Assembly (NCBI GenBank): GCA_963665095.1 | Contig: OY762069.1 | Location: 3,072,001-3,136,000, forward strand | Direction: 5' to 3' | DNA length: 64,000 nucleotides | Origin: an uncultured Desulfobacter sp. | Lineage (GTDB): Bacteria > Desulfobacterota > Desulfobacteria > Desulfobacterales > Desulfobacteraceae | Translations under genes and position numbers: made by a program | Shown: positions 26,848-46,970 of the stretch, in pieces | Numbering within the stretch: position 1 is the stretch's first letter | Layout: every line of letters begins with the position of its first letter | The notes under the pieces: model-generated | What the model saw: the letters and a program-made list of their open reading frames with translations, nothing else | The model's database searches: none | Told to the model about the DNA's origin: nothing

Positions 26848-28050
26848 TCAGGCCATGTCCGGCTCAATCCCCCGGATGAACTCACGCACAAATGAATACG
26901 AGATACGCTCCTGCTCCAGCCTCAGATTCTGAGCGTATTTATTCCGACAAAGGGCATCATAGACCTTTGCCTCATCAGCTGTTAACATTGACAGGTCCCG
27001 GCTCGCGGGTGAGGGCTCTCTCCCCCAGAATACCTTATGGGCCAGGAGCGTGGCCTCGTCCATAAGAAAGGAACGGACCCCGGGGAAGTAATGACGGATC
27101 CGGTCCAGCATGGCAAATCCATGGGTGTCCAGATCCCCCCAGTACCAGACCACCGGTAGAGACTTGATCCAGGGCACATGGGCAAGAACAGAGAGTCCGT
27201 ATCCAAGGCCAATGATCACCACTGCCTTTGGAAAAGGGGGAAAAGCAAGCCCGGTGATTTCGTTCTCCACCACAAAAACAGTATCTGGTTTAAAATTCAG
27301 ATCCCGGAACTGGTCTTCAGGCACCTCCAGGTCGGTCAGGCCCGTGATGGCAAGGGCGGGATCCAAAATTCGGAAACGAATCCGGGCTGGCTTGGGGCTG
27401 AACCCAAAGCGATATTCAAATGCATTTTTTCCCCTGGCATCCTCATTGACGGCATCCGGTGGCAGCACTGCAGTCAACAGCCGGGTTAAGATATCCCTGT
27501 GAGTCTCCATGAATTTGGTGTCTACCCCCGGGATCTCCAGCTGTCGAAGATAAATTCCGGGCATCGGGTGGGCTTTAACCCAGGAGACAACCGCCAGAAG
27601 TTTCTCCCATTCCGGTCCGTGGGCAAGGACCAGCATGGGCCGTTTCAGCAAGGGGGCTTTAAGTTCCGGAAACCGCCCTGTAATCTTATGAAAGGATGTT
27701 TGAAACTGCTTTGCTTCCGCTTTTTTCCCAAGATAGGAAATCACATCCTCCAGGGTATTGAAAACCACAGCTTTGGGAATTCTATTTTTCCCCAGAACCC
27801 GGTGATTCATTTCCTGCCACTCAATGGTGAATCCCGGTTTATCTTCCCCGGCACCATGGCGGACCAGGTTGGCCACCCACTCCCGGGCCGCATCAAACAT
27901 AGAACTAAGTTCTCCGGCATTGGGCCGCTTCAGTGGTATACGAACCGGATCAAAGGGGCCGGAGTCAACTGTCCTGGCAAGGAACTCTCCTTTGTCCCAC
28001 TTTTTTTCAAGCTTCTGCTGAATATCTTTGTGACGGGTCCAGGGTTTCAT
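26848..28050 (-). CDS. jetD: Wadjet nuclease subunit JetD (DUF3322 + DUF2220 TOPRIM)
   Basis: YLRQLEIPGVDTKF, VVENE (TOPRIM Glu), YWGDLDTHG (DxD) and RLEQERI motifs. Confidence 0.9.
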   Translation of the reverse strand: MKPWTRHKDIQQKLEKKWDKGEFLARTVDSGPFDPVRIPLKRPNAGELSSMFDAAREWVANLVRHGAGEDKPGFTIEWQEMNHRVLGKNRIPKAVVFNTLEDVISYLGKKAEAKQFQTSFHKITGRFPELKAPLLKRPMLVLAHGPEWEKLLAVVSWVKAHPMPGIYLRQLEIPGVDTKFMETHRDILTRLLTAVLPPDAVNEDARGKNAFEYRFGFSPKPARIRFRILDPALAITGLTDLEVPEDQFRDLNFKPDTVFVVENEITGLAFPPFPKAVVIIGLGYGLSVLAHVPWIKSLPVVWYWGDLDTHGFAMLDRIRHYFPGVRSFLMDEATLLAHKVFWGREPSPASRDLSMLTADEAKVYDALCRNKYAQNLRLEQERISYSFVREFIRGIEPDMA

Positions 28051-28243
28051 GAATTTTTTGTTATTGCCTCTATTCCTGCTTATTCATCTGGGGCAGCCCT
28101 ACCTTCTGTCCGGACTGCAGGCCAGACAGGCCTGCACTTGACATAGCGTTCAATGATGTGTTTTTTTACGGCAGCGTAACGAAACTCACATACCTGTGGA
28201 GTACCGCATCGGCTGATCCGGACACCCGGGCGGAGATGCCGCT

Positions 28244-29319: not shown

Positions 29320-30855
29320 TCACCCCTTGGAGAGTTTTTGTTTCTGCATATGGGTCTTTCTGACAGATTCTGAAATATTAAGGATCTCTTTTGCGATAAA
29401 TTTTTGGGGTTTATCATGAAATTCTTCAGAAACAAGGGTTGTATAATTCCACTTCAATGATTCAGCCGTTGGAAGGCTGTTTCGATGCTTTGATATAATG
29501 CGTTTTAAATCTTCATAAAAATTGGATTGGGTTTGAATATTTTCTTTGTTATTCATTTTCAATGTAATCTCATCCAAAATCTGAACCTCTTCATCACATC
29601 CTATCTCAATTCGCCGGTCTACATATTTTAAAAACTCCCTGATATTCCCCGGCCAGCGGTATTTTTGAAACAGCGGCAGATTTTTTTTGAAGTAGTCTTC
29701 AACTTCATGGCGTTGTGAAATTGGATACTGATTTCCTAACAGGTCTGTTTTTTTGTAATTGTGGTTGTATACAATTGACATCATATCCCCTGTCATGTTC
29801 CTTAACGCAGGAATTTCCAGGCGAACCCCTTCTATTCGATACAGCAAATCCTTTCTTACATTTTTTTCTAATAATTCCGGCTGCCCTGCAGCGATGATTC
29901 TTATATCTGATTTCATCTTGATGGGCTCATCAGCCCCTAAAGGAAGAATCAGACCATCTTCCAGAAATCTGAGAAGCATGGCCTGGCCCTTTGGGGGCAT
30001 CTCAGGCAGTTCATCAAGAAAAAGGGTTCCTCCCCCAAGGTTTTTAATTCTGCCGTCCCTTTGTTTTTCGGCGCCTGTAAATGCGCCCCGGGCATGACCA
30101 AAAAGTTCCGATACCAGTGCGGATTCTGTAAACAGGGAGCAGTTAATTGCCATAAATTTTTTTTCTCTTCTATGGCTTAAATCGTGGATGAAAAAGGCGG
30201 CCCCTTCTTTGCCAGACCCTGTTTCGCCGCTTATAAGGACATTCAGCGTTGTCGGGGCAACCTGATGTATCCTTTTTTTCAATTTTTTCATCTCCCGGGA
30301 AAACCCTTCAATCCCAGGCCGTCGGCTCTTAAAATATTCAGGCACCTGGATCGGTCTGCGTTCATCCACACAGATTTTTATGGCCTTTTTTAACTGCCCT
30401 GCATCAAAGACGACATCTGTCTGGGTGTTCTTTCCGAAAAAAGCCCTGGCGATACAGTATTGAATTTGAATCCTTTTTTTTTCATCACTGTTATGCCTGG
30501 GTAAAAGGTGAAAATTTATGTTCAACAAAGATGATTTTCCCATGGCCTGCTGGAATTTTTGAGACTTGTGTCCGTCATCTGTTAAAAACCACGAAATTTT
30601 AAGGCCGTGAAATTTATTCCGCAAATTCTCCAGCGCTGTTTTTAACTCTTTATATTCGACTTCGTTAATATGAGGAACGCATATATTTAATGAACTTAAC
30701 TTGTCCTGGCGGCTGCATTTTTGAAGGTGCTCCAAAAGCATGCTTCTTCCAGACGCAAGGACTTCGCTCTTTTCCTCAATCAAGGTGTTCGCCTGTTCTG
30801 TTTGGGCTATCATCTCAATGTATGACACATCAGGCCAGAGAAGACTTATTTTCAT
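29320..30855 (-). CDS. Sigma-54 enhancer-binding protein with unrecognised N-terminal domain
   Basis: GETGSGKE, ELFGHARGAFTGA, LFLDE and WPGNIRE motifs; the ~170 aa N-terminus is not REC, GAF or PAS. Confidence 0.9.
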   Translation of the reverse strand: MKISLLWPDVSYIEMIAQTEQANTLIEEKSEVLASGRSMLLEHLQKCSRQDKLSSLNICVPHINEVEYKELKTALENLRNKFHGLKISWFLTDDGHKSQKFQQAMGKSSLLNINFHLLPRHNSDEKKRIQIQYCIARAFFGKNTQTDVVFDAGQLKKAIKICVDERRPIQVPEYFKSRRPGIEGFSREMKKLKKRIHQVAPTTLNVLISGETGSGKEGAAFFIHDLSHRREKKFMAINCSLFTESALVSELFGHARGAFTGAEKQRDGRIKNLGGGTLFLDELPEMPPKGQAMLLRFLEDGLILPLGADEPIKMKSDIRIIAAGQPELLEKNVRKDLLYRIEGVRLEIPALRNMTGDMMSIVYNHNYKKTDLLGNQYPISQRHEVEDYFKKNLPLFQKYRWPGNIREFLKYVDRRIEIGCDEEVQILDEITLKMNNKENIQTQSNFYEDLKRIISKHRNSLPTAESLKWNYTTLVSEEFHDKPQKFIAKEILNISESVRKTHMQKQKLSKG

Positions 30856-31002
30856 TTAGCTCTCAATTCATTTTCAATGATAAAATATTTTTATATTAGA
30901 TATAAATTATTTATACATCAAACTCTTTACTAAATTCAATCAAAAAACACGGCACCACAAATAAGCGCATTTAATTCAGCCTGTTAAACATCAAAATCAA
31001 AC

Positions 31003-31020
31003 CTGGCACTATTCTTGATA
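31003..31020 (+). promoter_or_regulatory. Sigma-54 -24/-12 promoter for the dnaB operon
   Basis: CTGGCACTATTCTTGATA = TGGCAC-N5-TTGA, one mismatch to TTGC. It lies ~50 bp before the dnaB ATG and is divergent from the bEBP gene. Confidence 0.7.
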
Positions 31021-31068
31021 TAAGTCTTTTCCAGTTTCCAACTAAACCAGAGCGACAGGAATAAGAAT

Positions 31069-32445
31069 ATGGCTAAATTGACCGAAAAAAATCCATTGTT
31101 TATCAAGACGCCTCCCCATGACACCGAAGCAGAAGCAGCCCTGCTTAGTGCCATCTTTATCAATAATGAGAATATTCTTGAAACCGCTGAAATACTTGGG
31201 GCTGATGACTTTTATAAAGGGGCGCACAAAAAAATTTTCAAAGCCATTATGGATCTTTTTGAAAAAGATGAACCCGCAGATCTTGTGACGGTGGCAAACC
31301 GCCTCAAAGAGATGGACGCACTGGACAGTTCAGGCGGGGCAGCATTTCTTGCGGCAATTTCAGATTCAGCGCCGGTGGCCGTCAATGCGGTTCATTATGC
31401 AGAAATTATTAAAGGGAAATCCATTTTAAGACAACTGATCAACACAACCTGCCAGATTATGGAAAAAAGTCTGAATGAATCCGGGAATTATAAAGAAGTC
31501 CTCGATTTTGCCCAGAGTTCCATTCTCAAAACGTGTGAAACCAAATCAAATCGTACATTTTCCAAGCTTGATAAACTGGTCGGCCTGAATATTGATACAC
31601 TGGAAGAGCAACAAGGCAAGGCCGGCAGCCTTATTGGCCTTACCACCGGATATCGTTTTATAAACAAGATCACATCCGGGTTACAAAAATCTGATTTAAT
31701 AATCATTGCAGCAAGGCCAAGCATGGGGAAAACAGCTTTTGCATTGAATATCGCAAGAAATGTTGCCCTTGAAGAAAACGTTCCTGTGGCAGTTTACTCC
31801 CTTGAGATGTCCAAAGAGCAGCTTTCCATGCGCCTGCTCACTTCCGAGGCTAGAATCAATTCATCCCGGCTCAGGACCGGTGTGATGTCACAGGACGAGT
31901 GGGTGAATATTTCTGATGCTGCCGGGGTTCTATGCGATCTGCCTATCTTTATAGACGATACCCCCAATATTTCCGCCATGGAAGTTAAATCAAAAACACG
32001 AAAGCTCAAAAACAAACATGGCCTTGGTCTGGTTATCATTGATTATCTTCAGCTGATGGCACCGTCTTCTCAAATAAAAAAAGCCAATCGCAGGGACCTT
32101 GAAATTGCGGAAATATCCAGTGCATTAAAAGGCCTTGCAAAGGAGTTGAACATTCCTGTCATTGCATTGTCCCAGCTTAACCGGATGCTTGAGCAGCGTT
32201 CGGATAAGCGCCCGATGCTTTCAGATCTTCGTGAATCCGGTTCCCTGGAACAGGACGCCGACATTGTGGCGTTTATTTATCGGGATGAGGTGTACAACAA
32301 AGAGCCGGACAATCCTAAAAAGGGGACAGCGGAGATCATCATCGCCAAAAACAGAAATGGCGCTACAGGGACAGCCCATATGAGTTTTTTAGGGCAATAT
32401 ACGCGATTTGAAGATCTGATTCAGCAGCCTGAAATATTTCAATAA
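31069..32445 (+). CDS. dnaB: Replicative DNA helicase DnaB, probably an extra island-borne copy
   Basis: PPHDTEAE N-domain; AARPSMGKT, IIDYLQL, SQLNR, DLRESGSLEQDAD and KNRNG all intact. Confidence 0.93.
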   Translation: MAKLTEKNPLFIKTPPHDTEAEAALLSAIFINNENILETAEILGADDFYKGAHKKIFKAIMDLFEKDEPADLVTVANRLKEMDALDSSGGAAFLAAISDSAPVAVNAVHYAEIIKGKSILRQLINTTCQIMEKSLNESGNYKEVLDFAQSSILKTCETKSNRTFSKLDKLVGLNIDTLEEQQGKAGSLIGLTTGYRFINKITSGLQKSDLIIIAARPSMGKTAFALNIARNVALEENVPVAVYSLEMSKEQLSMRLLTSEARINSSRLRTGVMSQDEWVNISDAAGVLCDLPIFIDDTPNISAMEVKSKTRKLKNKHGLGLVIIDYLQLMAPSSQIKKANRRDLEIAEISSALKGLAKELNIPVIALSQLNRMLEQRSDKRPMLSDLRESGSLEQDADIVAFIYRDEVYNKEPDNPKKGTAEIIIAKNRNGATGTAHMSFLGQYTRFEDLIQQPEIFQ

Positions 32446-32458
32446 AAAGGAGGATCAA

Positions 32459-33955
32459 TTGGAACAAGCCCCACAGAATTTCTTCCATCTTCATGTTCAT
32501 ACTGAATACTCGTTGCTGCAAAGCACCATTCGGTTAGATCTGCTTTTTGAAAAATGCAGGGACCATAAAATGCAGGCTGTGGCCATCACAGATCTTGGAA
32601 ACATGTTTGGAGCTGCAAAGTTTTATGAAAAAGCAAGAGAGGCATCCATAAAGCCCTTGATCGGCTGTGAGGTCTTTTTAGCCCCCGGCAGCATGAATGA
32701 CCGGGGACATATGAATGTCAAAGGGATAACTCATCTAGTGCTTTTGGCAAAAGATATGGATGGATATAAAAACCTTTGTAAGCTTGTTTCTTTTGCCCAT
32801 TTAAAAGGCTTCTATTATGAACCTATGATTGACAAATCGCTTCTGGCAAGCTGTTCAATGGGCCTGATCGGGCTTTCGGGCTGCCTGAAAGGGGAAATCC
32901 CCCAACACATTCTCAACAATGATATCAACGCGGCACAGGATTCAGCCATTTTTTTTCAAACTATTTTTGGAGAGAATAATTTTTTTCTGGAGATTCAGGA
33001 AACCGGATCAGGACACCGGCATGAGGTCAATGAAAAAATTATAGATATCGGCAACAGACTCTCAATACCCGTAGTGGCAACAAATAATTGTCGTTATCTG
33101 TCTAAAGACGATTACAGGACCTATGAGATTTTGCGCTGCATACAGACAGGGGATACCTGTAACAACCCGGGCAGAACAAAAATTGATTCAGGGCAATTCT
33201 ACTTTAAATCCACTCAGGAGATGGTACAGGCCTTTCGTTATTGTTCCCAGGCAATAAAAAACACAGAGGAGATCGCCAAAAGATGTAATCTGGAATTTGA
33301 TACCAGATACCGTTGTGCTTCAAATTTCATCCGGCCACAGCAAAAAGCCCGGGATGAATGCCTGCGCGCGGTTGACATCGGGCGCAGGAACCAGATGTAT
33401 AAAAATATGATGCGGCACTTGGGCCCGGAATATGTCAGCCAGGTTATTGCTTTTGATCAATTGGATGCAAAGGCTGTGATAAGAAAGATTGCCAAGGTAC
33501 TCGAGGTGCCGGAATCTGAACTGGATGAAACAATGACCATGCTTCCTGACGCTATGCTGCTATCAAGGATAGTCCATACCATACCCGAAATCCGGGAAAA
33601 AATTTCAAATCGAAATCCAACCTTGCTCGACATGGCATTGTCATTGGAAGGACTGCTCAAAAAAATTGCCACCCATCCCACTGTTGTCGCAATGGCTGAT
33701 AAACCGCTATATCATTATTTGCCCTTATGCCGGGGGAGTGATGGAGAAACAATCACCCAGTTTGATATAAACGATCTTGAAGAATCAGACGTGCACTTAC
33801 TTAATCTTCTCTGCGTAAATTTAGATGATCAATCCGTTAAAACACTTAATGAACTCTTTGCTGAAGATTTCCAAAAGACGGATCAGTGGGCCGCTGAAGA
33901 AAACAAGGATGCGAAGCGTGATTCAACAAACAAAAATATGGGAAACAATCAATGA
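32459..33955 (+). CDS. Truncated, catalytically degenerate DNA polymerase III alpha homolog (PHP + partial palm/thumb)
   Basis: HLHVHTEYSLL, IKPLIGCE and HLVLLA identify a DnaE PHP domain. It is 498 aa with no GRGS or PDxDxD motif. TTG start after AAGGAGG. Confidence 0.85.
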   Translation: MEQAPQNFFHLHVHTEYSLLQSTIRLDLLFEKCRDHKMQAVAITDLGNMFGAAKFYEKAREASIKPLIGCEVFLAPGSMNDRGHMNVKGITHLVLLAKDMDGYKNLCKLVSFAHLKGFYYEPMIDKSLLASCSMGLIGLSGCLKGEIPQHILNNDINAAQDSAIFFQTIFGENNFFLEIQETGSGHRHEVNEKIIDIGNRLSIPVVATNNCRYLSKDDYRTYEILRCIQTGDTCNNPGRTKIDSGQFYFKSTQEMVQAFRYCSQAIKNTEEIAKRCNLEFDTRYRCASNFIRPQQKARDECLRAVDIGRRNQMYKNMMRHLGPEYVSQVIAFDQLDAKAVIRKIAKVLEVPESELDETMTMLPDAMLLSRIVHTIPEIREKISNRNPTLLDMALSLEGLLKKIATHPTVVAMADKPLYHYLPLCRGSDGETITQFDINDLEESDVHLLNLLCVNLDDQSVKTLNELFAEDFQKTDQWAAEENKDAKRDSTNKNMGNNQ

Positions 33956-34557
33956 AAATATTAGTTACAGGTGACCTTCATTTTAAAAAGCAGCAGTTCC
34001 AGTGGATTGAAGCGCATCAAAACGACTATGACTGCCTGTGCCTGACCGGCGATTTTTTAGATAGTGCCCGGGATGACTTCTACGAGCAGGTAAAATGGGT
34101 TGCGTCATGGTTAAAAAATCTGAACCGGCAGATTTTTATATGTAGCGGCAATCATGACCTGGATGATTATGGCGAATGTGAATGGCTGGAAGCGCTTAAT
34201 GGCGGACATATTTGCACTGACGGTCATATCAAGGTCTTTAACGGTCTGAAGTTTGGCTGTATTCCTTATCTTGGCGCTGATTTACTGATGTTTTCCGACT
34301 GTGATATTCTACTGTCCCATGTCCCGCCATCAAATACGACAACATCCCGTGACTTAAAATCCGGCAGAGATTTTGGAGATGAACAGTTGAATCAAGCATT
34401 GAAAAGTGGATTAATTCAGCCTGGACACCTATTCAGCGGGCATGTCGAAAACCCTTTGAAAAAGCGAGATATGGTGTTAGGGTGTGTCATTATCAATCCA
34501 GGGTCAAAATGCGATAAAATAGCCCCTTTTCATGCAATTATCAGCGTTCCCGATTAA
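33952..34557 (+). CDS. Calcineurin-like metallophosphoesterase
   Basis: GDLH, TGD, GNHD, SHVPP and GHVE motifs; ATGA overlap with the upstream gene. Confidence 0.85.
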   Translation: MKILVTGDLHFKKQQFQWIEAHQNDYDCLCLTGDFLDSARDDFYEQVKWVASWLKNLNRQIFICSGNHDLDDYGECEWLEALNGGHICTDGHIKVFNGLKFGCIPYLGADLLMFSDCDILLSHVPPSNTTTSRDLKSGRDFGDEQLNQALKSGLIQPGHLFSGHVENPLKKRDMVLGCVIINPGSKCDKIAPFHAIISVPD

Positions 34558-34629
34558 GTCTGATTCTAACGTTGATATAAACGAAGTTTAGAACAACCCG
34601 CAAGAAGACAACAAAAAGGAGCGGCAAAT

Positions 34630-35610
34630 ATGCCAAACAAGAAAATAACACGTGGAATTTCCAAAGATTTCGCAGACGCATTTAAAGCATCTGAGCTTTA
34701 TACCCTTTATGAAGAACATAAAAATGAATTGCTTATCGGCATACGCAATAATTATTTAAATTTATATTATAACTGTGACAGTATTGCAAAAATTACATAC
34801 CCAAGGGGCACTATTCGTTGTGAAATAGACAAATACTATTTAACTGGCAAGTCCTATAAGAGTGGTGACAAAGAGAAACGATTTAAAGTCGAGCCAAGTC
34901 AAATTTGTGGTGACTATGAGAAGAAAATAAAAATCAACAGTGATAAAAAAGGAAAAATGGAAAAACAAGCCCAATCAAAGTTAGTTCTTTCCAATAATGC
35001 CAATAACACGTCTAACTGGTTTTGTATTGATATTGAATATGTAAAAGCCTTCCATAATGAAGAAGAAAAAAAAGAGGCCGGTTTCCAAGCTCGATTTGAT
35101 ATTATTGCAGTTTCAAAAAAAGCGCCGCATAGAATCGCCTTGATCGAACTTAAATATGGCCGGAACGCAATCGGTGGTAAAAGCGGAATTTACAAGCACG
35201 TTGAAGATTTTGTTAAATTTCGCGACAAAGATTTTTTTGAAGAGCATTTAAAAAGTGAAATTATCAAAATTATTCACAGCCAGAAAAATCTCAATATCCC
35301 CATCCCATTTGAGTTGCCCAAAGAAGAAAACTTCTTTCAACCCGAATTTTATTTTATAACTTTAAACAACAATGCAGAAGGAAGGACCTGCACACCAAAG
35401 CAGACAATGGCGGGCTACCTTTTCGAAAATAAACGCTGGGACTGCAAAAGATTATCAGGGGCATACTGCGTTGAAAAAGACTTTGGAGATATCACAAAAA
35501 AAGATAATAAATTTAATGCTACATTTTTATTTTCAAAGGCAACAATAAAAAATATGACAATAGACGATATCATTGATGGTGACTATGACGAAAGAATTGT
35601 TCCTGAATGA
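34630..35610 (+). CDS. Hypothetical protein, putative PD-(D/E)XK nuclease
   Basis: IDIEY...RFDIIAV...LIELKYG pattern; AGGAG RBS. Confidence 0.6.
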   Translation: MPNKKITRGISKDFADAFKASELYTLYEEHKNELLIGIRNNYLNLYYNCDSIAKITYPRGTIRCEIDKYYLTGKSYKSGDKEKRFKVEPSQICGDYEKKIKINSDKKGKMEKQAQSKLVLSNNANNTSNWFCIDIEYVKAFHNEEEKKEAGFQARFDIIAVSKKAPHRIALIELKYGRNAIGGKSGIYKHVEDFVKFRDKDFFEEHLKSEIIKIIHSQKNLNIPIPFELPKEENFFQPEFYFITLNNNAEGRTCTPKQTMAGYLFENKRWDCKRLSGAYCVEKDFGDITKKDNKFNATFLFSKATIKNMTIDDIIDGDYDERIVPE

Positions 35611-36908
35611 TAATTACAATCCATAGAGGTGCCCAAACCATTGGCGGCAGTTGTGTGGAAATCCAGTCAAAAGGCAGCAGGATTTTATTAGATGTTGGCA
35701 CCCCTTTAATGCAGCCTGGCGGAGGCGAACTCAACCCCACAGATCTGGAAAACCCCTCAATTGAAAATGGTATTTTACCCGACATAAAGGGGATATATAA
35801 AGACGCCTCCCCTGATGTTGAAGCCATATTAATATCCCATTCACATATGGATCATTGCGGCTTGCTGGACCACCTGCATCCTGACATCCCGGTGTATTTA
35901 AGTCAGGGTTCCCATGCAATGATCCAGATCGGCAACGTATTTTATCCCCCAAAAAACAGAATTCACTTTGATAATTTCAAAATAGTTGAACACTGGAAAC
36001 CCTTCCAGGTTGGCCCGTTTAAAATCACATCATACCTGATGGACCACTCGGGATTTGATGCCTGCGCATTTTTAATTGAAGCGGAAGGTAAGAAAATTTT
36101 TTATTCAGGTGATTTCAGGGGACATGGCCGTAAGTCAATCCTTCTGGATAAAATTGTTGCCAACCCCATAACGGATATTGACTGCCTTTTAATGGAAGGC
36201 ACAACCCTTGGCGGCAACCACCAGGTTGGATTTAACACGGAGGATGAGGTTGAACAGGCATTCAGTGACGCTTTCTGCGAACAAAAAGATGTCTGTTTTG
36301 TAGCTGCATCCGGCAGTAATATTGACAGACTCGTATCTTTATATAACGCGGCACGTAAAAATAAAAAAATTCTGGTACTGGACCTTTATGCCTTTTATGT
36401 ACTTTATCGTTTAAAGGAATTAGGGGCTAAATTGCCCCCGTTTGACGGGGATAATATCAGAATTTTCTATATTAGAGGCCATGCCCAAAGTATCGCTGAA
36501 CGACTTGATAAAACGCTTCTATACAAATTTAAACACAGAAAAATAGAGATCGATGAGATTTTGAAGCATCGTATTCAGATGGTTTTGAAGCTGCCCATAG
36601 GTGCCATGACAAAGATTTCCAATGCGCTTGTTAAAGACAAGTCCTTTCAGGATGTAAAACTGATATACTCAATGTGGCAGGGATATCTGGAAAAGGATGG
36701 CCGCTATGAAAATTTCTGTGCCCAATACAATGCCGAACTGACCCATATCCATGTAAGCGGACACGCATATCTGGATGATCTGAAGAGACTGGCACAGGCA
36801 TTGAATCCCACGCAATTGGTCCCCGTTCATACAATTTCAAAGGACATCTTTTCTTCCTGTTTTAACAATACCAGACTCTATGATGATTCCCAGCCTTTCG
36901 AAATATGA
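35607..36908 (+). CDS. MBL-fold beta-CASP (RNase J-like) hydrolase
   Basis: IGGSC, HSHMDH, DHS, SGDFR, HVSGH and PVH motifs; ATGA overlap with the upstream gene. Confidence 0.85.
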   Translation: MIITIHRGAQTIGGSCVEIQSKGSRILLDVGTPLMQPGGGELNPTDLENPSIENGILPDIKGIYKDASPDVEAILISHSHMDHCGLLDHLHPDIPVYLSQGSHAMIQIGNVFYPPKNRIHFDNFKIVEHWKPFQVGPFKITSYLMDHSGFDACAFLIEAEGKKIFYSGDFRGHGRKSILLDKIVANPITDIDCLLMEGTTLGGNHQVGFNTEDEVEQAFSDAFCEQKDVCFVAASGSNIDRLVSLYNAARKNKKILVLDLYAFYVLYRLKELGAKLPPFDGDNIRIFYIRGHAQSIAERLDKTLLYKFKHRKIEIDEILKHRIQMVLKLPIGAMTKISNALVKDKSFQDVKLIYSMWQGYLEKDGRYENFCAQYNAELTHIHVSGHAYLDDLKRLAQALNPTQLVPVHTISKDIFSSCFNNTRLYDDSQPFEI

Positions 36909-37252
36909 TTAGGTTCTACTGTGGGCTATATTTATTTAACAGGACCGACAAGATTTTGAATCAATCGATAAATTCCCCGAAAAAAAGAATTAGGTGATTG
37001 AACCCGATGTCAGCAAACACTATCACCCGTAACAATCTTTTTTTCACAATAATTTTTTCAGCTAAAAATATTTCCAAAAAACCAGACTACTCCACGACAA
37101 GGACCATTTCTCAACTGAAAACCGCCCCAGACTTTCCCTGTTATTCTATGCAGTTACAAAGTAAATATAATCTCATTCAGCCAATACAAGGATTGACAAT
37201 GATTGTATTTTGGCTATTATGATATGTAGTTTTTTTAATAAGGAGGGCAGAT

Positions 37253-37501
37253 ATGCATATTTCATTGACACCTGAGCTTGAAAGCAAAGTTAAGCAAAAA
37301 GTAGCATCAGGTTTTTACAACAATGCCAGTGAAGTTATTCGGGACGCTTTGCGGTTCTGGGAAAAAAACGAAGAATTGGTTCAGCATATGAAACTTGAGT
37401 TGTTAAAAGAACGTTTGGCGATTGGTGCGGATCAAGCTAAGCAGGGGAAATTTGTGGCGCAATCCGTAAGCGAAATTATTGCTGAGGCCAGGAATGCCTG
37501 A
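37253..37501 (+). CDS. parD: ParD-family (RHH) antitoxin
   Basis: MHISLTPELE...SGFYNNASEVIRDALR. Confidence 0.88.
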   Translation: MHISLTPELESKVKQKVASGFYNNASEVIRDALRFWEKNEELVQHMKLELLKERLAIGADQAKQGKFVAQSVSEIIAEARNA

Positions 37502-37787
37502 ATACCGACTTACGCCTTCAGCAAAATCAGATTTAATTGAAATTTGGCATTATACTGTTGAGACATGGGGGGAGCAACAAGCTGAAAGATATCTTCAAGA
37601 CATTGAGGATACGCTTAATGAACTTGCTGCCAATCCGGGACTTGGAAGACGGCGACCGGAAATTTCCCCAGGTTATTATTCCTTTCCAGCACGGAAACAC
37701 ATCATCTTCTATATTAACTCAGATCGTCACATTGATATTATTGGCATTTTACATGGAAAAATGGATATCGATAAAAATCTAATGTAA
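37494..37787 (+). CDS. parE: ParE-family toxin
   Basis: YRLTPSAKSDLIEIW.YT.ETWG.QQA.RY; overlaps parD. Confidence 0.88.
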   Translation: MPEYRLTPSAKSDLIEIWHYTVETWGEQQAERYLQDIEDTLNELAANPGLGRRRPEISPGYYSFPARKHIIFYINSDRHIDIIGILHGKMDIDKNLM

Positions 37788-37897
37788 GGGGGAAGACTAC
37801 CTGCCGGCGAGGCACCATTTATCGGTGGAACAACACGCCGGACTATCCCTGTCATTGAACACTTCTTTGAAATGGACATGGGGCAACAAGGAATCGA

Positions 37898-38929
37898 TCA
37901 GATACGCTCGGAATCTTTATGGCATACGATTTTATATTTTTTTCTGAATTTTAACACATTGGGGTCAAAATTTATCATAATATCATTATATTGAGTATCC
38001 AAAAATATTTTCGCCTTTTGTCTTTCACCATCAATTCTTTTAATAAATCCGGAATGATTTTCTTGCTCAACATCCTGACAATCCCGCATAAAAGTTTTGA
38101 GATGGATCTTTTTCAAAACCTCTTTATCGGTGAACACAAAATGCAGGCAAGGGTCGTCAAACATAATAAATTGAGATTCGGAAGGTTTGCTCTCATCAAA
38201 AATCAAAACCTGTTGCAACGATTCTTTATCAAATTCTTTTTCCAGCCGTTCCCAGGCATTTTTAAGATAATCCCAGAAACGATATTCGAGTTCCTTAAGC
38301 TGGGGTTCAAACCCTCCGGCATCAGGTTTATAATCCCACAAAAAGCCTTCTTTGTCAGGGACTCCGTGGTTTTTCCCCTGAACATATTCATGGGGTATGA
38401 GTTCTTCAATATAGTCCTGGCCGTATTCATCAAGTCTGGAATAAATATATCCGGAGGCCATGGTCAAGGTCGCATAATAAAACTGCTTTTTGATCATCAA
38501 ACGAGCCCAGGTTAAATAAAGAGACCCTCTGTAAGATTTTTTTTGGTAATCTTTAAAATCCTTTTCTTTGGCTTCCTGCTGGAACTGATGATCCTGGAAA
38601 TCATAATCATAAAGCGTTTCAAAAGAAAGGAGGGTTTTGGATTCCGGAAAGAACTCATTCAGCCAGAAATAATTTTCACCTATACCCTGAAGGGGGAGTA
38701 GCGTGGCATTTAATTTTGTTGACTGGGCATTCGTCAGATCGTCTTTTGCCTCATCCATCTGGTCTTTATCGGTTACAATGATATCGAAAAGTGCCTTGAG
38801 CAGAAACTGTTCGACCTTTAAGTAGTCTTGTTCAGGCATATTAACCCGGTATTGTTCCTGGCGGTCCTGATTCCAGCTAAAATAATCGGGGAGATGTTTT
38901 ATGATGGCCTGCTTTAGTTCCGGGAGCAT
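37898..38929 (-). CDS. Hypothetical protein (343 aa)
   Basis: Long ORF with no recognisable motif. Confidence 0.6.
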   Translation of the reverse strand: MLPELKQAIIKHLPDYFSWNQDRQEQYRVNMPEQDYLKVEQFLLKALFDIIVTDKDQMDEAKDDLTNAQSTKLNATLLPLQGIGENYFWLNEFFPESKTLLSFETLYDYDFQDHQFQQEAKEKDFKDYQKKSYRGSLYLTWARLMIKKQFYYATLTMASGYIYSRLDEYGQDYIEELIPHEYVQGKNHGVPDKEGFLWDYKPDAGGFEPQLKELEYRFWDYLKNAWERLEKEFDKESLQQVLIFDESKPSESQFIMFDDPCLHFVFTDKEVLKKIHLKTFMRDCQDVEQENHSGFIKRIDGERQKAKIFLDTQYNDIMINFDPNVLKFRKKYKIVCHKDSERI

Positions 38930-38973: not shown

Positions 38974-39315
38974 TCATGCGGCTTCCAGCACAAAATTCAC
39001 ATGGATAGCGTCAAAAGGAAATTCTATTTGACCGCTTTGCGTTTTTATCAAAATCCCGGCTTTTAAAAGCGCATGGACGTCACCATGGACGGCTTTAACA
39101 TCCCGGCCCAATCGTCTGGCGACCTCACGGATAGACAAAGATCCGGCCCCGGTCATTTTCTGAATAAGTTCCCACCGCTTGCCGGAAATAATTTTAAAAA
39201 GCAGAGCAGGGGTCTCAAAACTGATAAAAGCGCCTTGAGCCTCGCCGTCAAAAGCTGCCAGAAACCGATTCTCAATCTCTTTTCGTGATGATATTCCCAA
39301 TGTTACGGTTTTCAT
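38974..39315 (-). CDS. HTH antitoxin / DNA-binding protein (TumA-like, HVO_A0114-like)
   Basis: SIREVARRLGRDVKAVHGDV HTH; immediately downstream of the DUF6516-like gene. Confidence 0.7.
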   Translation of the reverse strand: MKTVTLGISSRKEIENRFLAAFDGEAQGAFISFETPALLFKIISGKRWELIQKMTGAGSLSIREVARRLGRDVKAVHGDVHALLKAGILIKTQSGQIEFPFDAIHVNFVLEAA

Positions 39316-39316
39316 T

Positions 39317-39598
39317 TTATCCTTTCCAATCGTCTACATCTTTCCAAAAATCCCGAATTAAAATTTTTGGAGATTTAAATTCATACGGCATTTCTTTATC
39401 GCCAATATGCTGCTGATCCCCTTTGCCTGCTTCATTGTCGTATCGATGAACACAGATGCTCTCTACTATGAACGCCAGGCGATATTTAAAACTATGTCTG
39501 CTCCCGGGCAGTGGTGTTGGCAGACGCCATACAATCAACTCCACAAAAGATGTTTCAGAGATTATATGACGGTCTTTTAATATCAATTCTGCCTTCAT
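39317..39598 (-). CDS. DUF6516 / TumE-like toxin
   Basis: H.FKYRL...RYDNE.GKGD..H motif. Confidence 0.7.
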   Translation of the reverse strand: MKAELILKDRHIISETSFVELIVWRLPTPLPGSRHSFKYRLAFIVESICVHRYDNEAGKGDQQHIGDKEMPYEFKSPKILIRDFWKDVDDWKG

Positions 39599-39645
39599 GT
39601 TGGATATAATACCAACGCACACAGTGTGTTGTCAATAACACCAAC
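39599..39645 (-). promoter_or_regulatory. Sigma-70 promoter with twin palindromic operators
   Basis: Minus strand TTGACA-N18-TATTAT-N7-ATG; GTTGG-N8-CCAAC (39599-39616) and GTTGT-N8-CCAAC (39628-39645). Confidence 0.65.
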
Positions 39646-41744: not shown

Positions 41745-44700
41745 TTACGGAACGTCCCGTCTCCTGGACTGCCGATACTCTTCCACGCTCATGTTGCGCA
41801 GCCGTGCAGCCTGTCCGTCACGGCTGTAAACCAGGCCGACGCCGGACACATAGGGTTCAATGATGTGAATTTTCTGCAACGGGGTGACGATGAGCAGCTG
41901 CAGATTGAGCTTTTTGAACAGCTCCAGGCTGAACCGGGTGGATTCATCCGATCCCCTGCCGAATGCCTCGTCAATGGCCACAAACCTGAATGTCCTGGAA
42001 CGTACACTGTTCCACTCCAGGCCGAACTGGTAGGCCAGACTTGCCGCAAGTACGGTATAGGCAAGCTTCTCCTTCTGGCCCCCTGATTTCCCGCCGGAGT
42101 CGGCATAATGCTCATATTCGGTCTGGTCTTCGCACCAGCGCTCCGAGGCGGCAAATACGAACCAGTTGCGGACATCGGTGACCTTCCGGGTCCATCGCCG
42201 GTCCAGTTCGCTGGTGCCCTCCCGTCCCCGGAACCGCTGGATCAGGGTGCGCACCTGTAAAAATTTGCTTTCAGAGTAATGATCCGTGTCAGATCCGGTC
42301 AGTGCCCCTTCGGTACAGGCTTTCAGCTGCTGTTGGAAATCCCGGATATCCACATCCGGGTTGAGCTGGGCCTCCAGCAGGATATACCGGCCCGGGTTAT
42401 ATTCGATATCGGACAAAGAGTGGTTGATCCGGTCAATCCGCTCTTTGATGGTCTCCCGCTCCCTGGCAAGCTGGGACTGGAAATTGGCCACCTCCCGGAT
42501 GGTATTTTCGTTGAGCAGGGCCTTGAACCGGGACTCAAACCGGGGTAGGTTGTCGCTCTTGAGCTGGGCCAGCATGGTTTCATACTCAGGACCCGAGGCC
42601 ACGGCATCATCCATCTCCATGGTTTCCGACGGAAAATCCCGGCGAAATCCGTTCATGGTTTTGATGATTCTTTCTTCCAGCCGTCTGACCCGTTTATCCA
42701 GGTTATCGATCTGCCCCTGAATGATCTCCCGTAACTCCTTTTCCCGGTTGGCACAGGATTCCACCGTCAGCACATGGGAGCCAAACGCCGTATGCCGCAT
42801 GTCTTCCAGGGCTTTGAACAAAGACTGTCTCTTTTCAGGGTCCATATCCTGGGCCGTTGCCATATCTGATTCACAATTTTTTTTGCCGGCATGGGCCTGG
42901 TCCTGTTTTTCCCGGTTTCGGGAGAGCTCGTCCCTGGTCTCCCTCAGTTCTTTTTCTGTCTCTTTGATCCTTGTTTCCAGATCTTCCAGCTGGCGGTTCA
43001 GGGTGGAAAGGATATTGGAGGCAACCTCAAGCTCTTTTTTCTCCTGTTCCAGCCGGGAAATAGTCACGGCCACCGACTGCCAGTCCAGATCGGAAAAGGA
43101 TCTGTATTCCCCAAGCTTGTCCAAATTGGACAACTGCTCTCGTGCGTTGTTCTGAAAGGTATCAAGGGATGCAATTTTATCGGCAGCCGCCTGCATCTGT
43201 TTTTCCAGGGAGCGGGCCTGCTGTTTCAATGCCCGGATCTTGGCCTCGTTGGTCCAGCCCAGAATGTACTGGGAGCGGTCATTGATACGTTTTCGGTCAT
43301 CCTTTTCATGGCGGATGCCGCCTGTCTTGATCTGGCCGGCCCGGGTAACCGCCATGGGCTCTTTGCGGAACCGGATCATTTCGTCACAGCAGATATAGTT
43401 AAACCGCCGGGCAAGCTCACGCTCCACCCACAGATAGAAATCAGATTTACTTTGCAGTTCCAGCTTGTTTACCAGGGATTCGGGCACAAGCTGCATCTCC
43501 ATATCCCTGAGATCCGTCCTGACCAGGTAATAGACCAGCCGGCCGTTGAGTGCTGTGGCATCCACCCATGCCGCCACATCAGCATAATGGTCCTCTTTTA
43601 CCAGCAAAGAGAGCCCGAAATTGTGCAGCAACCGTTCCACAGCCCCTTCCCAGTCGCTTTGATCATCCCGGACCCGGATCAGCTCTCCGGCAAAGGGCAG
43701 CTCTTTTTCATCCACCCCCAGATGAGTACAAAGGCGGTTGCGGATCTCAATCTGCCGCACATGGATATTGCTCTTTCTGCCGGACAGCGACTCAAGCTCT
43801 TTTTCAAGGGCCTGATGGGCAGATGTCAGATCTCTGAATTCAACTTCTGTATCTGTACGCTCGTTTCTTAAATCCGCCTCTTTTTGTGCAAGCTTTTCCC
43901 GGCATGCTTTGATCTTCCGGGCATTGTCGTGGAAATCATCCCGGGTCTCAACCCGTGCCAGATCCAGATCCCGGGCCAGCCCGCCATATCGCAGGGCTTT
44001 ATCTTTTCTGTTTTTCTTCTCCAGGGCCAGGCGGTCCAGGTCCGCCCTGATCCGTTCCAGCCGGTCGCCCCCGTTTTCAGCAATGGCCTGTTTCAGCCCG
44101 TCCCGGTCGCCTAAAAGCGCCCGGTGGTCCAGGTCCTGTGCCTGGCTCTTATTTTCCAGACGCGCCTGCTCATCTGCCAGGTTTTTCAGCCGTTTCTGGA
44201 ACAGTCCCCATTTATGGGTGGCAAAAAACGGAACCAGGGCGTTGCGGCAGTCGCGCAGAAGCCCCTGCTCCGCCACCACCGCCTGGTGGGTCCGGCAGTC
44301 TTTGACCAGGGGGGTCAGCCGTTCAATCTGGTGCCTGGCCTTTAATACGGCTTCATGGGCCCGGTTCAGATCGTCAAAATGGTGAATCAGGGCATCAATG
44401 CGGGGGTCTGTGTCAAAGGGTTCGAGCATATGCTGCCGCACAAAATCGTTGAGGTTGCCCACGGATTTCATGGAGACGGTCTGGTGAAACAGGGTCAGGG
44501 CCACCTCCTGGGCATATCCCTGGTTTTTAAAGACACCCAGGATCACGGAGAAACTGTTGTGATCCCGCAAGGCCACTGATTTTGACGCATGGCCCATATC
44601 GCTGCGCTCGGACTTGTAATACCCCTGGACGTAGGAGCGCAGGCTGCGCTCTTTGGTGTCTGCGCCGGCCGCCTTGTTGTAGATGATCCGCTGGGCCGGG

Positions 44701-44912
44701 ACCAGCAGCGTGGTCACCGCATCCACCAGGGTGGATTTTCCAGAGCCGATATCCCCTGTGAGCAGGCCATTTCTGCCGTTAAGATCCAGGCGCCACACCT
44801 CTTTATGAAAGGTGCCCCAGTTGAAAACCTCCAGGGTGTCAAGGCGGAAACCGGCCAGGGCATCGTCCCGGACAAACTCCAGCATTCCCTGTTCCATATT
44901 GTCCGGTTTCAT
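41745..44912 (-). CDS. jetC: Wadjet SMC-like ATPase JetC
   Basis: GDIGSGKST, long coiled coils, KSGGQ and IDEAF; follows jetA and jetB. Confidence 0.9.
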
Positions 44913-45524
44913 TTATCCCCCATTGTCTTCTTCGCGTTCCTCTTCATTACCTGTCTGGTATTCCTTCAACCGCTCATCAAACTCATGGAGCCACTGGGCA
45001 TCCACAAAGGCCTTGATGATCCGGATCACCTCGATCTTGTCCTTGTGTCCCTTGAGGCGACGGATAAACCCGAGTTCGGCTATTTTGTTCAAATGGCTTT
45101 CAATGCGGTCCAGAAACTTTGCCTCATTACTGCCCGAAGTAAAAAAAATCCGGCCCATGTCCGCGATCTCTTCCACGGAGAGGATCAGCCGGGGGTCCTG
45201 GCCTGCGGCATCGTTTTCAGCCAGTTTCTTGCGCAGCAGCGCAATGATCAGACTCACGGGATAGGAGAGCTTTCTACGCCCCACAAGCCTTGGCAACGGC
45301 TCTTCACCTTCGACCGGCTCCAGGGTTTTCAGCCAGGCATACCCCTCGGATTCGTCCAGTACCAGTTCCAGGCCCAGCACCCGCACGTACTCGCGCACAG
45401 CCATCTGCCCCTCTTCAAGATCCTGCCACAGGGCCGGGTCTGTTTCCCGGAACACCACCCCCTTTATCAGGGCAATGAGCGGTCTGCTGATATTTACAGG
45501 ATACGCGTTGCTTTCTTCCATCAT
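44913..45524 (-). CDS. jetB: Wadjet JetB (DUF4194)
   Basis: LGLELVLDESEGYA and LPRLVGRRKLSYPVSL motifs; lies between jetA and jetC. Confidence 0.88.
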   Translation of the reverse strand: MMEESNAYPVNISRPLIALIKGVVFRETDPALWQDLEEGQMAVREYVRVLGLELVLDESEGYAWLKTLEPVEGEEPLPRLVGRRKLSYPVSLIIALLRKKLAENDAAGQDPRLILSVEEIADMGRIFFTSGSNEAKFLDRIESHLNKIAELGFIRRLKGHKDKIEVIRIIKAFVDAQWLHEFDERLKEYQTGNEEEREEDNGG

Positions 45525-45527
45525 TTC

Positions 45528-46970
45528 CTACCGGTTAAAAATCACTTTACTGAACTGCGCCCGCCGGCAGACGCCTGAACTGTCGGTCCAGACGGCCTGC
45601 TGGGTCTCTTTGTCATCAAAAACCGCTTTTTCATCCTCCCCGGCAATGCTCAGGTAGGCCACAAGCTCGGCCAACCCCTCTTCCAGGGGATGGTCCTCAA
45701 GGATATCGCTTAAGCTGATCTGGTCCTTTGCCTGGAGAAAGGCCCTGATCCGTCGTTTCAATTTGAGCCGGTCCACAAACACCCCTGAATAGAGGATATC
45801 CGAAGGGATATCTGATCCGTCCCCCAGCGCGACCGTTTCCCGGATCACGGGCTTAACGGGAAAGGTGTACATGGGCCGTTCCATGGGGAGCAGAACCGTG
45901 GGACAGGACGCATCAATGGTCATGAAATCATTGCCCGGCGGGTCATCCTTTATCTGGACACTTCGGGTCTCAATGGACTGGATCACCTGCATGATCCGCT
46001 TGTTTTCCAGGAATGCCTGGTCATCCAGGTACCGCCGGAGCTGTCCGGAGAGTTTGGCCACGGTGCGCTGGGTATGTTCCCCGGCGGAAAGCCAGTCGTA
46101 ATGGATCCGTTTCAGGCGCGGGTCCGGGGAGAGGGCCTTTACAGCATCGAGCTTAAACACGGCGGCAAGCAGGTCCGTGAGCTCCTCCTGCCGGGCCGGG
46201 GACATGAGAAGATCCCAGAAGGAGGTAAAACTTTTACCCTGGTCTGATTCAGCAATCATGTCCCGCTCCCCGAAAAAATCCGCCAGCAGCTCCCCTTTGC
46301 TGCCTTCCCACAGGGTGATGCGCTCCCGGATTTTCCGGTCCAGGTCCCGGAAGTTGTACTCCACCTCCCTGAAATCACTGAGCAGTTCCCGGGCGGTTTT
46401 ATTGACCTGGAGAAACCGGTCTTTCAGCGCCGTATCATCCAGCATATCCCAGTGTCCCTGCCGGGCCAGCTCAAGCTTTTCCTCAATCTGCGCCTTTTGC
46501 TTTTCAAGGCTCTTGATTCTTTCGGCCCCATCCGCCTGGGTGCCCCGGACCATCTGCGCCAGCAGTTCAAAAATGGTCATGAGCCGGGATTCCGTCCCGA
46601 CAAAGGCCCGGGAAACCAGACTCTCAAGCCAGGTCACGGCCTTTTCCACCCAGGGCATCAGGTCATAATGGACCTCATCCGAATCCTGGGGATAAAATTT
46701 CCTGAGCCATCCTTTATCATCTGCGGCCCAGTCATCCAGGTAGGCTTCGGCTGCCTTGGGAAACGCATCCTCGCCCTGGGTTTCCCTTAAAACAAACAGA
46801 TAGTCCTCCAGGGCTGAAGCCAGATCCGCCCGGCTCATGCTCCGGTGGTTTGGCAGGATAAAGGCCCTGTGAAGGAAAGAGACAATCAGCGGGGCATGGT
46901 CCGCTGCCAGCAGCCGCCAAGCCGGATGGTTCTTCCTTAACGATTTGAGGGTGTGATAATCAAACGCCAT
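45528..46970 (-). CDS. jetA: Wadjet JetA (DUF3375)
   Basis: HPAWRLL.ADHAPL, GTESRL, SDQGKSF and GLAELVAY motifs. Confidence 0.88.
   Translation of the reverse strand: MAFDYHTLKSLRKNHPAWRLLAADHAPLIVSFLHRAFILPNHRSMSRADLASALEDYLFVLRETQGEDAFPKAAEAYLDDWAADDKGWLRKFYPQDSDEVHYDLMPWVEKAVTWLESLVSRAFVGTESRLMTIFELLAQMVRGTQADGAERIKSLEKQKAQIEEKLELARQGHWDMLDDTALKDRFLQVNKTARELLSDFREVEYNFRDLDRKIRERITLWEGSKGELLADFFGERDMIAESDQGKSFTSFWDLLMSPARQEELTDLLAAVFKLDAVKALSPDPRLKRIHYDWLSAGEHTQRTVAKLSGQLRRYLDDQAFLENKRIMQVIQSIETRSVQIKDDPPGNDFMTIDASCPTVLLPMERPMYTFPVKPVIRETVALGDGSDIPSDILYSGVFVDRLKLKRRIRAFLQAKDQISLSDILEDHPLEEGLAELVAYLSIAGEDEKAVFDDKETQQAVWTDSSGVCRRAQFSKVIFNR

Follow-up and report, generated by a model that had tools for sequence, protein, structure and literature searches.

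The imuA-imuB-dnaE2 cassette is an inducible unit in which a polymerase paralogue without PHP activity is combined with an inactive polymerase that acts as a scaffold. The replisome is a target of phage proteins, lambda P and P1 Ban among them, and plants have immune receptors with integrated decoys. In this study, we describe a block of six genes in which copies of the replisome genes dnaB and dnaE stand beside predicted nucleases, at positions 29,320 to 36,908 of a 64,000-nucleotide stretch of an uncultured Desulfobacter sp. genome (GCA_963665095.1, contig OY762069.1, positions 3,072,001 to 3,136,000 of the forward strand; hereafter, the window).

In the sections considered here, RtcR-like sigma-54 activators are predicted to switch on defence genes and occur next to restriction-modification systems (PMC4012209, Makarova et al. 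2014), and ARG-centred WYL/Nudix conflict operons are described as off by default, with calcineurin-like phosphatases, restriction-fold nucleases that evolve fast and, in some cases, helicases (PMC9503650, Iyer et al. 2022). Section 3.8 of the latter does not name DnaE, DnaB or beta-CASP proteins. No published description of the architecture reported below was found in the literature searched; the supplements of PMC9503650 and PMC4012209 lay outside this search and may list such loci.

Our analysis shows that the block is real and more than a one-off: in its general kind it belongs with known regulated nuclease cassettes, but its cargo is unusual and under selection. Our preferred reading, which we regard as about evenly balanced and which is drawn from sequence comparison, is a nuclease-based, inducible cassette for defence against phages. 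It would have a variable slot, and the replisome copies captured there would serve as induced decoys or fork-directed helpers. Below, handles beginning with L, G and P denote loci, genomes and proteins, respectively.

Gene content and promoter of the block

The first gene encodes a sigma-54 activator (bacterial enhancer-binding protein; 29320..30855, minus strand), identified from the list of open reading frames (ORFs) and the profile family Sigma54_activat. Five genes on the plus strand diverge from it: a second DnaB helicase, designated DnaB' (31069..32445; families DnaB and DnaB_C); DnaE', of 498 amino acids (32459..33955; PHP and partial DNA_pol3_alpha, profile positions 112-253 of 260); a calcineurin-like metallophosphoesterase (33952..34557; Metallophos); orf326, a predicted PD-(D/E)XK nuclease (34630..35610; without a profile family in the scan); and an RNase J-like beta-CASP metallo-beta-lactamase-fold (MBL) nuclease (35607..36908; Lactamase_B_2 and RMMBL). 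The genes are separated by 13 bp, an ATGA overlap, 72 bp and a second ATGA overlap, and dnaE' starts with TTG preceded by AGGAGG. ORF and family scans agreed with the initial annotation on the six ORFs, their coordinates, spacing and gene types.

The activator had also been described as facing a -24/-12 box, and a near-consensus candidate is present there. A candidate sigma-54 promoter, CTGGCAC-TATTC-TTGAT (31003..31019, plus strand), lies 49 nt 5' of dnaB'; its -24 element is canonical and its -12 element reads TTGA where the consensus has TTGC. TGGCAC-N5-TTGA has 26 copies genome-wide, or ~0.0008 expected per 213 bp (the length of the spacer), so that a chance occurrence in the spacer would be rare. 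The host genome contains rpoN.

DnaE' and DnaB'

Elsewhere in its genome, the host encodes a DnaB of its own that is 65% identical to DnaB', and a DnaE that is 56% identical to DnaE' across the PHP domain; both replisome genes of the block are therefore extra copies. Relative to the host DnaE, DnaE' keeps the PHP domain and the thumb region and has an internal deletion of ~110 residues that includes the GPGRGS motif. Its PHP metal ligands are substituted (D21Q, H46L, D210N and H212R), the palm motifs PDIDVD and KFDFLG are gone, leaving no palm aspartates, and the protein stops at 498 residues, without the fingers, HhH, OB and C-terminal regions of the C-terminal half. The alignment bears out the earlier call of a short DnaE without catalytic residues. 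DnaE' does not fall in the DnaE2/ImuC clade: it nests within the replicative DnaE of the host family, and its match to NF004225 is far below the cut-off.

A search with DnaE' residues 255-498 retained two proteins from 764 candidates, its own cluster and P0141. The latter (507 amino acids, 61% identical to DnaE') has the same deletion junction and the same tail, and shares H46L (TDHG to TDLG) and D210N (DC to NC) with DnaE'. It has likewise lost D21 and the palm motifs but retains a histidine at the position of DnaE' R212. P0142 has the same derived form and is 98% identical to DnaE'. Because the lesions predate the split of DnaE' and P0141, the differences that accumulated afterwards test selection on the dead form. 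In the PHP domain, 80 of 91 columns conserved among housekeeping DnaE proteins (defined from 31 of these) are identical between the two, compared to 37 of 75 variable columns (p 6e-8). In a neutral simulation, both frames were open in none of 2000 runs at 60-63% identity and in 2 of 2000 at 66%. Together, column test and simulation indicate that the PHP fold of DnaE' is maintained by purifying selection without its chemistry and that the gene is not a fresh pseudogene; drift, with dN/dS near 1, had been named as an alternative, and DnaE' proved to be constrained.

DnaB' is intact, as had been proposed: helicase motifs H1-H4, the R finger and the N-terminal domain are preserved, and TIGR00665 scores 538.8 bits (cut-off 385.25). 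It is 71-72% identical to its family relatives and sits on a long branch. Duplication from the host genus was not rejected for either gene (dnaB p 0.31, dnaE' p 0.09).

Extra replication genes could also derive from a decaying prophage or integrative and conjugative element (ICE), as a replication module with no present function. The second DnaB genes of G307 and G025 are indeed prophage genes, and G239 has an extra dnaE near phage-like genes. However, no primase, loader, integrase or structural gene was found in the 24 ORFs scanned around the block (25.8-56.4 kb), no relative of DnaE' was present on viral contigs, and the best phage matches to DnaE' were two-piece alignments of 36-39% identity to long DnaE. 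Selection continued after inactivation, and the derived form shared with P0141 largely refutes this origin, which we consider very unlikely. Among the matches listed for 120 family genomes, which leave out 91 weaker ones, none was a second short DnaE, and a metagenome scan with generic words gave ordinary DnaE, with the short form in none of 80 loci among the matches listed.

The activator and its family

The activator (511 amino acids) consists of an N-terminal alpha/beta domain (~175 residues), an AAA+ domain and a C-terminal helical tail. The AAA+ domain is intact, with Walker A, GAFTGA, Walker B and the R finger all present. RtcR is its best NCBIfam and PADLOC match; the PADLOC RtcR and PspF models align only to residues 182-446, that is, to the AAA+ part without a CARF part. 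The N-terminal domain is rare, with six matches in 1.84 billion representatives, of which the sixth is a repeat artefact, leaving five real ones. Its model (pLDDT 87, 8 sequences) has a receiver/flavodoxin-like fold, whose strand 3 does not end in a phospho-acceptor Asp. Fold searches with this model returned receiver-like folds (Z up to 9.5) and no standout match, and an unlisted family may exist; CARF was not among the listed folds in either search, and the ESM Atlas gave no usable match for the domain.

Three contexts of the activator family were seen: the window, L081 and L177 (one genus), and L033. An orf326-related nuclease lies within three genes of the activator in all three, and DnaE derivatives occur in two. 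In L081 and L177, the activator is divergent from a gene for a 473-residue protein, which is followed by the orf326-related nuclease and then by the MBL; this protein (L081:11702-13123), which has no Pfam family, fills the slot of the window's dnaB' and dnaE'. The order in L033 (519-9699) is activator, a perfect -24/-12 box, a 607-residue DnaE with a dead palm, a REase-ARP nuclease, an FlhA-type C-terminal piece, an 807-residue truncated DnaE and an FtsZ-like gene, so that four housekeeping-derived pieces occur within one operon; a relative of orf326 is divergent from this operon. The sigma-54 boxes are perfect in L033 and have a weak -12 element in L081 and L177, and TGGCA(C/T) is found at a comparable site 5' of the first gene in L081, in L177 and twice in L033. 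These loci support the claim that the activator family, the -24 box and the nuclease/MBL end recur as a set.

Phosphoesterase and nuclease pair

The phosphoesterase contains the motifs GDLH, GDFLD and GNHD, H123, and GHVE as the last motif. The model of orf326 (pLDDT 89) combines a MotA-CTD/DUF419-like N-terminal part (residues ~1-105) with a restriction-endonuclease core, and E111, D157, E173 and K175 are invariant across the family. In a structure search (VIA), the top rows were nucleases (Z 7.7, root-mean-square deviation 3.5, 130 residues aligned; for NucS, Z 7.2, 3.3 and 105), with Z scores that are middling. Invariant residues and fold agree with the initial annotation of a PD-(D/E)XK-like protein, and we regard orf326 as a predicted nuclease of this type. 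In the ESM Atlas, it matched unnamed clusters only; the nearest named family, REase-ARP at 0.89, is a lead only. The family is widespread (597 relatives among 1406 candidates, the best 63-70% identical, and the named ones mostly from Bacteroidota), and the window's gene has a GC content of 0.34 and a third-codon-position GC (GC3) of 0.32. In the first genome scan, orf326 alone as a query found nothing, and no match was detected on plasmids.

The MBL was annotated as a beta-CASP nuclease, and the full motif set is present: HxHxDH, H147, D169, E197, H386 and H408, including beta-CASP motifs A, B and C, are invariant in 37 sequences. Its beta-CASP relatives include Apollo, SNM1A and Artemis. Of 46 orf326 loci, 35 have an MBL within 3.1 kb, which follows directly downstream in 29; two of the 11 loci without it have less than 1 kb of downstream sequence. 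A WYL regulator was found near orf326 in 6 of the 46, and a phosphoesterase adjoins the MBL, or is two genes away, in at least three (two from tblastn over all 46 loci, one among 10 loci inspected by eye). The window MBL is closest to relatives from the same order (55-60%), whereas orf326 is AT-rich and Bacteroidota-like; the nuclease slot is thus exchangeable. In L091 (7351-9609), an MBL and orf326-like pair is located between guaB and the housekeeping dnaE.

PADLOC left the block without an assigned defence system, as had been expected. None of 69 orf326 family members was matched by any model, and neither were the MBL and DnaE'; PADLOC 2.0 core-gene models were absent from the block, apart from weak phosphoesterase matches (PDC-S10, 1e-10, half of the model).

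A second strain and distribution of the block

A 190,006-bp contig of a near-identical strain carries the activator (96%), DnaB' (453 of 458 residues), DnaE' (98%) and the MBL (96%); the 90% clusters of the phosphoesterase and of orf326 contain no protein from it. An 8.4-kb contig of run X8, which is assumed to come from the same strain and whose alignment begins where P0121 diverges, aligns to 29438-34338 and 35619-37141 of the window, with ~1340 other bases between. Deep contigs of this run cover jetD and an aldolase gene to 29199 and then depart from the window, and the block is present on the shallow contig only; repeats at the 29199 edge make this difference in depth a weak hint.

The initial annotation treated the block as one candidate system; that it forms a fixed system of six genes is not supported. 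The whole block was not found in 60 relatives, in which only housekeeping-level dnaB and dnaE, aldolase, toxin-antitoxin and orf343 matches were seen; the MBL is present in 17 of 250 genomes from the order and in 10 of 400 from the phylum, and the activator domain in 1 of 400 phylum genomes.

Mosaic origins of this kind (orf326 65-70% identical to mostly Bacteroidota proteins, MBL order-like, dnaB' and dnaE' from the host family) would also be expected if only orf326 and the MBL, together with the phosphoesterase, were defensive, and dnaB' and dnaE' were passengers from another mobile element that had been shuffled behind the promoter; the arrangement in L091 would provide a route to accidental capture. 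We assign this explanation a low probability, given the tight coupling of the genes (13 bp, ATGA), the strong ribosome-binding site of dnaE' and the recurrence of crippled copies in similar contexts. The two strains argue against it as well: under neutrality, the 112 base changes of the X8 contig predict ~22 amino-acid replacements in each gene, and 11 were seen in the activator, 5 in DnaB' and 11 in DnaE', an indirect estimate that assumes even divergence and that the contig is from the second strain.

Replisome-gene copies in other genomes

The association of replisome copies with such nucleases, proposed for the window, recurs in further loci (e.g., L033, L078 and L168). Among 27 MBL loci in 24 other phylum genomes, three had an extra dnaE or dnaB piece within ~5 kb. 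L077 contains a split C-terminal half of DnaB. L078 (5728-15320, G163) contains two FtsZ-like GTPase pieces, a Lar-type zinc ribbon, a nuclease, an MBL and an extra, full DnaE that carries a fused Lar domain; the FtsZ-like genes are upstream of the extra DnaE, and an ARG-phosphatase fusion is located 3 kb further. L168 (13101-15485) encodes a 794-residue DnaE that has lost its PHP ligands. Five further loci were found by tracing other second DnaE matches in the order: L188 (8957-11401, G208), with an 814-residue DnaE that has lost its PHP ligands, beside an FtsZ-like gene and type III restriction genes; L187 (8842-11377, G102), with a 597-residue DnaE whose palm is deleted and whose PHP ligands are intact, overlapping a phosphoesterase gene; L185, with a 912-residue DnaE and two phosphoesterases nearby; L189 (G239), where the extra dnaE is on an element with phage-like genes; and L184, a short contig. 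Candidates L190-L193 were dropped, as these are lexA-dnaE2 cassettes. In L222 (9033-12716, G360), a DnaB C-terminal copy belongs to an operon that diverges from a WYL regulator gene; type I restriction genes and an OLD-like ATPase/UvrD pair are its neighbours.

In a PHP tree of 42 rows (with one dropped because it lacked the anchor motif), every extra DnaE copy groups with the housekeeping DnaE of its own family. Approximately unbiased (AU) tests, for groups named after the first tree had been inspected, rejected a single clade with the window DnaE' for L168/L188 (p 0.0008), L187 (p 4e-7) and L033 (p 8e-44). Loss of the PHP ligands (in L168 and L188) and loss of the palm (in L187 and L033) have thus each occurred more than once. 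This recurrence is a theme and not a statistic, since many of these genomes are kin.

The palm aspartates are partly or wholly kept in L168 and L188, whose DnaE copies presumably resemble newly made mutator polymerases, by comparison with DnaE2. Such copies bring to mind a stress-induced repair or damage-tolerance operon, similar to lexA-imuB-dnaE2 or RtcR-rtcBA, in which DnaE' would be an ImuB-like inactive scaffold reached via a proofreading-dead truncated stage, DnaB' would reload or unwind forks, and the MBL and phosphoesterase would clean ends. Loss of PHP ligands and C-terminal region with retention of palm aspartates is the layout of a mutator polymerase; the intact DnaB' has changed least of all genes from one strain to the other (5 changes in 458); and both the kinship of the MBL with Apollo, SNM1A and Artemis and the RtcR match of the AAA+ domain are in line with such a role. 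However, the host already owns a lexA-imuB-dnaE2 cassette (3.965-3.971 Mb; gene names assigned from sequences), and the content of the restriction-fold nuclease slot differs from strain to strain and from locus to locus by swapping, as is usual in conflict systems. The block is also very patchy in its occurrence. On balance, a repair operon appears rather improbable.

Genomic setting

The block is AT-richer than its flanks, as had been noted: GC is 0.38-0.44 over 29-40 kb and 0.47-0.57 in the neighbouring kilobases, and GC3 is 0.32-0.45 in the six block genes versus 0.58-0.68 in jetD, aldolase, jetC and uvrB. The two adjoining toxin-antitoxin pairs are also confirmed, as a parDE unit (37161..37824, plus strand) and a TumE toxin with an HVO_A0114 antitoxin (38974..39622, minus strand), with orf343 (37898..38929, no Pfam family) between them. 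No integrase, terminal repeat or target duplication was found at the block ends. Patchy occurrence, low GC and toxin-antitoxin neighbours fit a defence island.

With regard to these flanks, a 98% identical copy of parDE occurs at G000:C1:1540346-1541008, beside a transposase pair, and orf343 has 92-95% identical copies in other genomes, often adjoining the TumE pair. A local rearrangement is evident at thyA (25838-26704), which adjoins uvrB here and is 27-40 kb away from it in relatives.

The block had been placed within a Wadjet locus, between jetC and jetD. Genes of this system do lie on both sides, with jetD at 26848..28050 and jetABC at 41745..46970, both on the minus strand; the interval also holds the aldolase, orf343 and a histidine kinase. 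From this position, the block might be an accessory of the surrounding Wadjet anti-plasmid system. However, jetABCD is contiguous in G023 and G002 and is split by 13.7 kb in the window, where jetC (1055 residues, compared to 1130 in G023) has a 75-residue in-frame deletion in the head region at ~44492-44502, and jetD has diverged (77% DNA identity to G023, versus 85% for jetABC) behind a decayed copy of the jetC 3' end (28058..28160, minus strand). The window's Wadjet is, judged from these lesions, probably inactive, and its jetD is apparently from another copy. No jet gene was seen at the other activator, orf326 or MBL loci. We therefore dismiss a functional link as extremely unlikely, and our best reading of the nesting is that it arose by accident at a variable site.

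Proposed function

According to the preferred reading of an inducible nuclease cassette, the N-terminal domain of the activator would bind an infection or damage signal, and the activator would open the -24/-12 promoter. The product of orf326 would then cut DNA, the MBL would trim RNA or DNA ends, and the phosphoesterase would take off terminal phosphates, with the result that phage DNA is destroyed or growth is arrested. It is possible, albeit doubtful, that DnaE' and DnaB' display host-like replisome surfaces and in this way soak up phage proteins aimed at hijacking or blocking Pol III alpha and DnaB, or that they hold back replication forks during the action of the nucleases. The initial annotation considered the replisome mimics either decoys or sensors. 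Since they would be made after the sigma-54 switch, they are likelier to be decoys or effectors than the trigger; this order of expression weakens the sensor role, and the decoy role is favoured by inference only. The local-lineage origin and fast evolution of the DnaE copies fit a bait that resembles the host, and fit local gene capture equally.

Several observations weigh against this reading. The five- or six-gene set was seen only in the window and, partly swapped, in one near-identical strain, whose activator is without the C-terminal tail; the ~1340 other bases in the X8 contig imply that the end of the phosphoesterase gene and orf326 have been replaced there. The -12 element of the promoter is non-canonical. 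The comparison with P0141 covers the protein alone, and the part of DnaE' after the deletion departs from the housekeeping conservation profile, with 27 of 58 conserved and 21 of 56 variable columns identical (p 0.35). The replisome copies appear dispensable for the nuclease core, because the nuclease pair mostly occurs without them: dnaE is beside orf326 in 1 of 46 loci, a replisome piece is found at 3 of 27 MBL loci (many on short contigs), and in L081 activator, nuclease and MBL accompany a slot gene that is not related to dnaB or dnaE. Second DnaB copies were detected in 3 of 120 family genomes, two of them in prophages (G307 and G025) and the third being the L222 copy. Finally, the cases from G163, G208 and G102 are not independent, as these genomes come from a single family, and genome-level enrichment reached only p 0.04.

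A broader proposal is a general replisome-decoy strategy, in which defence islands time and again capture dnaE, dnaB and ftsZ-like genes of their own lineage, stripped of catalysis with the fold kept. The copies would be under sigma-54 or WYL control together with a PD-(D/E)XK and beta-CASP pair, phage proteins would be trapped or the nucleases set off, and DnaE' would represent a conserved pseudo-enzyme form of Pol III alpha. We consider this proposal unlikely. If true, Pol III alpha, the most essential protein of replication, would have a new pseudo-enzyme form, conserved and stripped of catalysis; that such forms have arisen repeatedly and independently next to nucleases points to a selective cause. 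The question bears on whether copies of essential proteins serve bacteria as bait for phages that would hijack the originals, and the locus offers two testable handles, a widespread nuclease pair without a PADLOC model (597 orf326 relatives) and a sigma-54 activator with an unclassified sensor domain.

Comparison with described systems

All four genes of Wadjet type I (JetABCD) flank the block; here they are split by 13.7 kb, with a deletion in jetC and a jetD apparently from another copy, and are not part of the cassette. Plant integrated decoys are similar in that a copy of a host protein, with catalysis lost and fold kept, stands beside effectors, whereas the window copies are separate genes behind a predicted inducible promoter, and binding of phage proteins is hypothetical. 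In contrast to imuA-imuB-dnaE2, DnaE' descends from the host family's replicative DnaE, lacks palm aspartates and has no LexA or ImuB neighbour.

In the text considered, ARG-centred systems resemble the block, as predicted here, in being off by default and in having a ligand-sensing regulator, a phosphatase, a restriction-fold nuclease, sometimes a helicase, and variable modules (PMC9503650), and the related loci add REase-ARP in L033 and the ARG-phosphatase fusion in L078; however, the window block contains no ARG, Macro, NADAR, rhodanese-phosphatase or WYL, and its regulator is a sigma-54 activator. With regard to RtcR-like activators, the block has no rtcA, rtcB or restriction-modification target, its cargo consists of replisome copies and nucleases, and its N-terminal domain gave no alignment to the CARF part of the PADLOC RtcR/PspF models and has a receiver/flavodoxin-like model. 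The likeness to these activators, as far as they are described in the part considered, lies in a putative ligand-sensing N-terminal domain combined with an NtrC-like AAA+ domain and an HTH, and in predicted sigma-54 control of downstream defence genes (PMC4012209).

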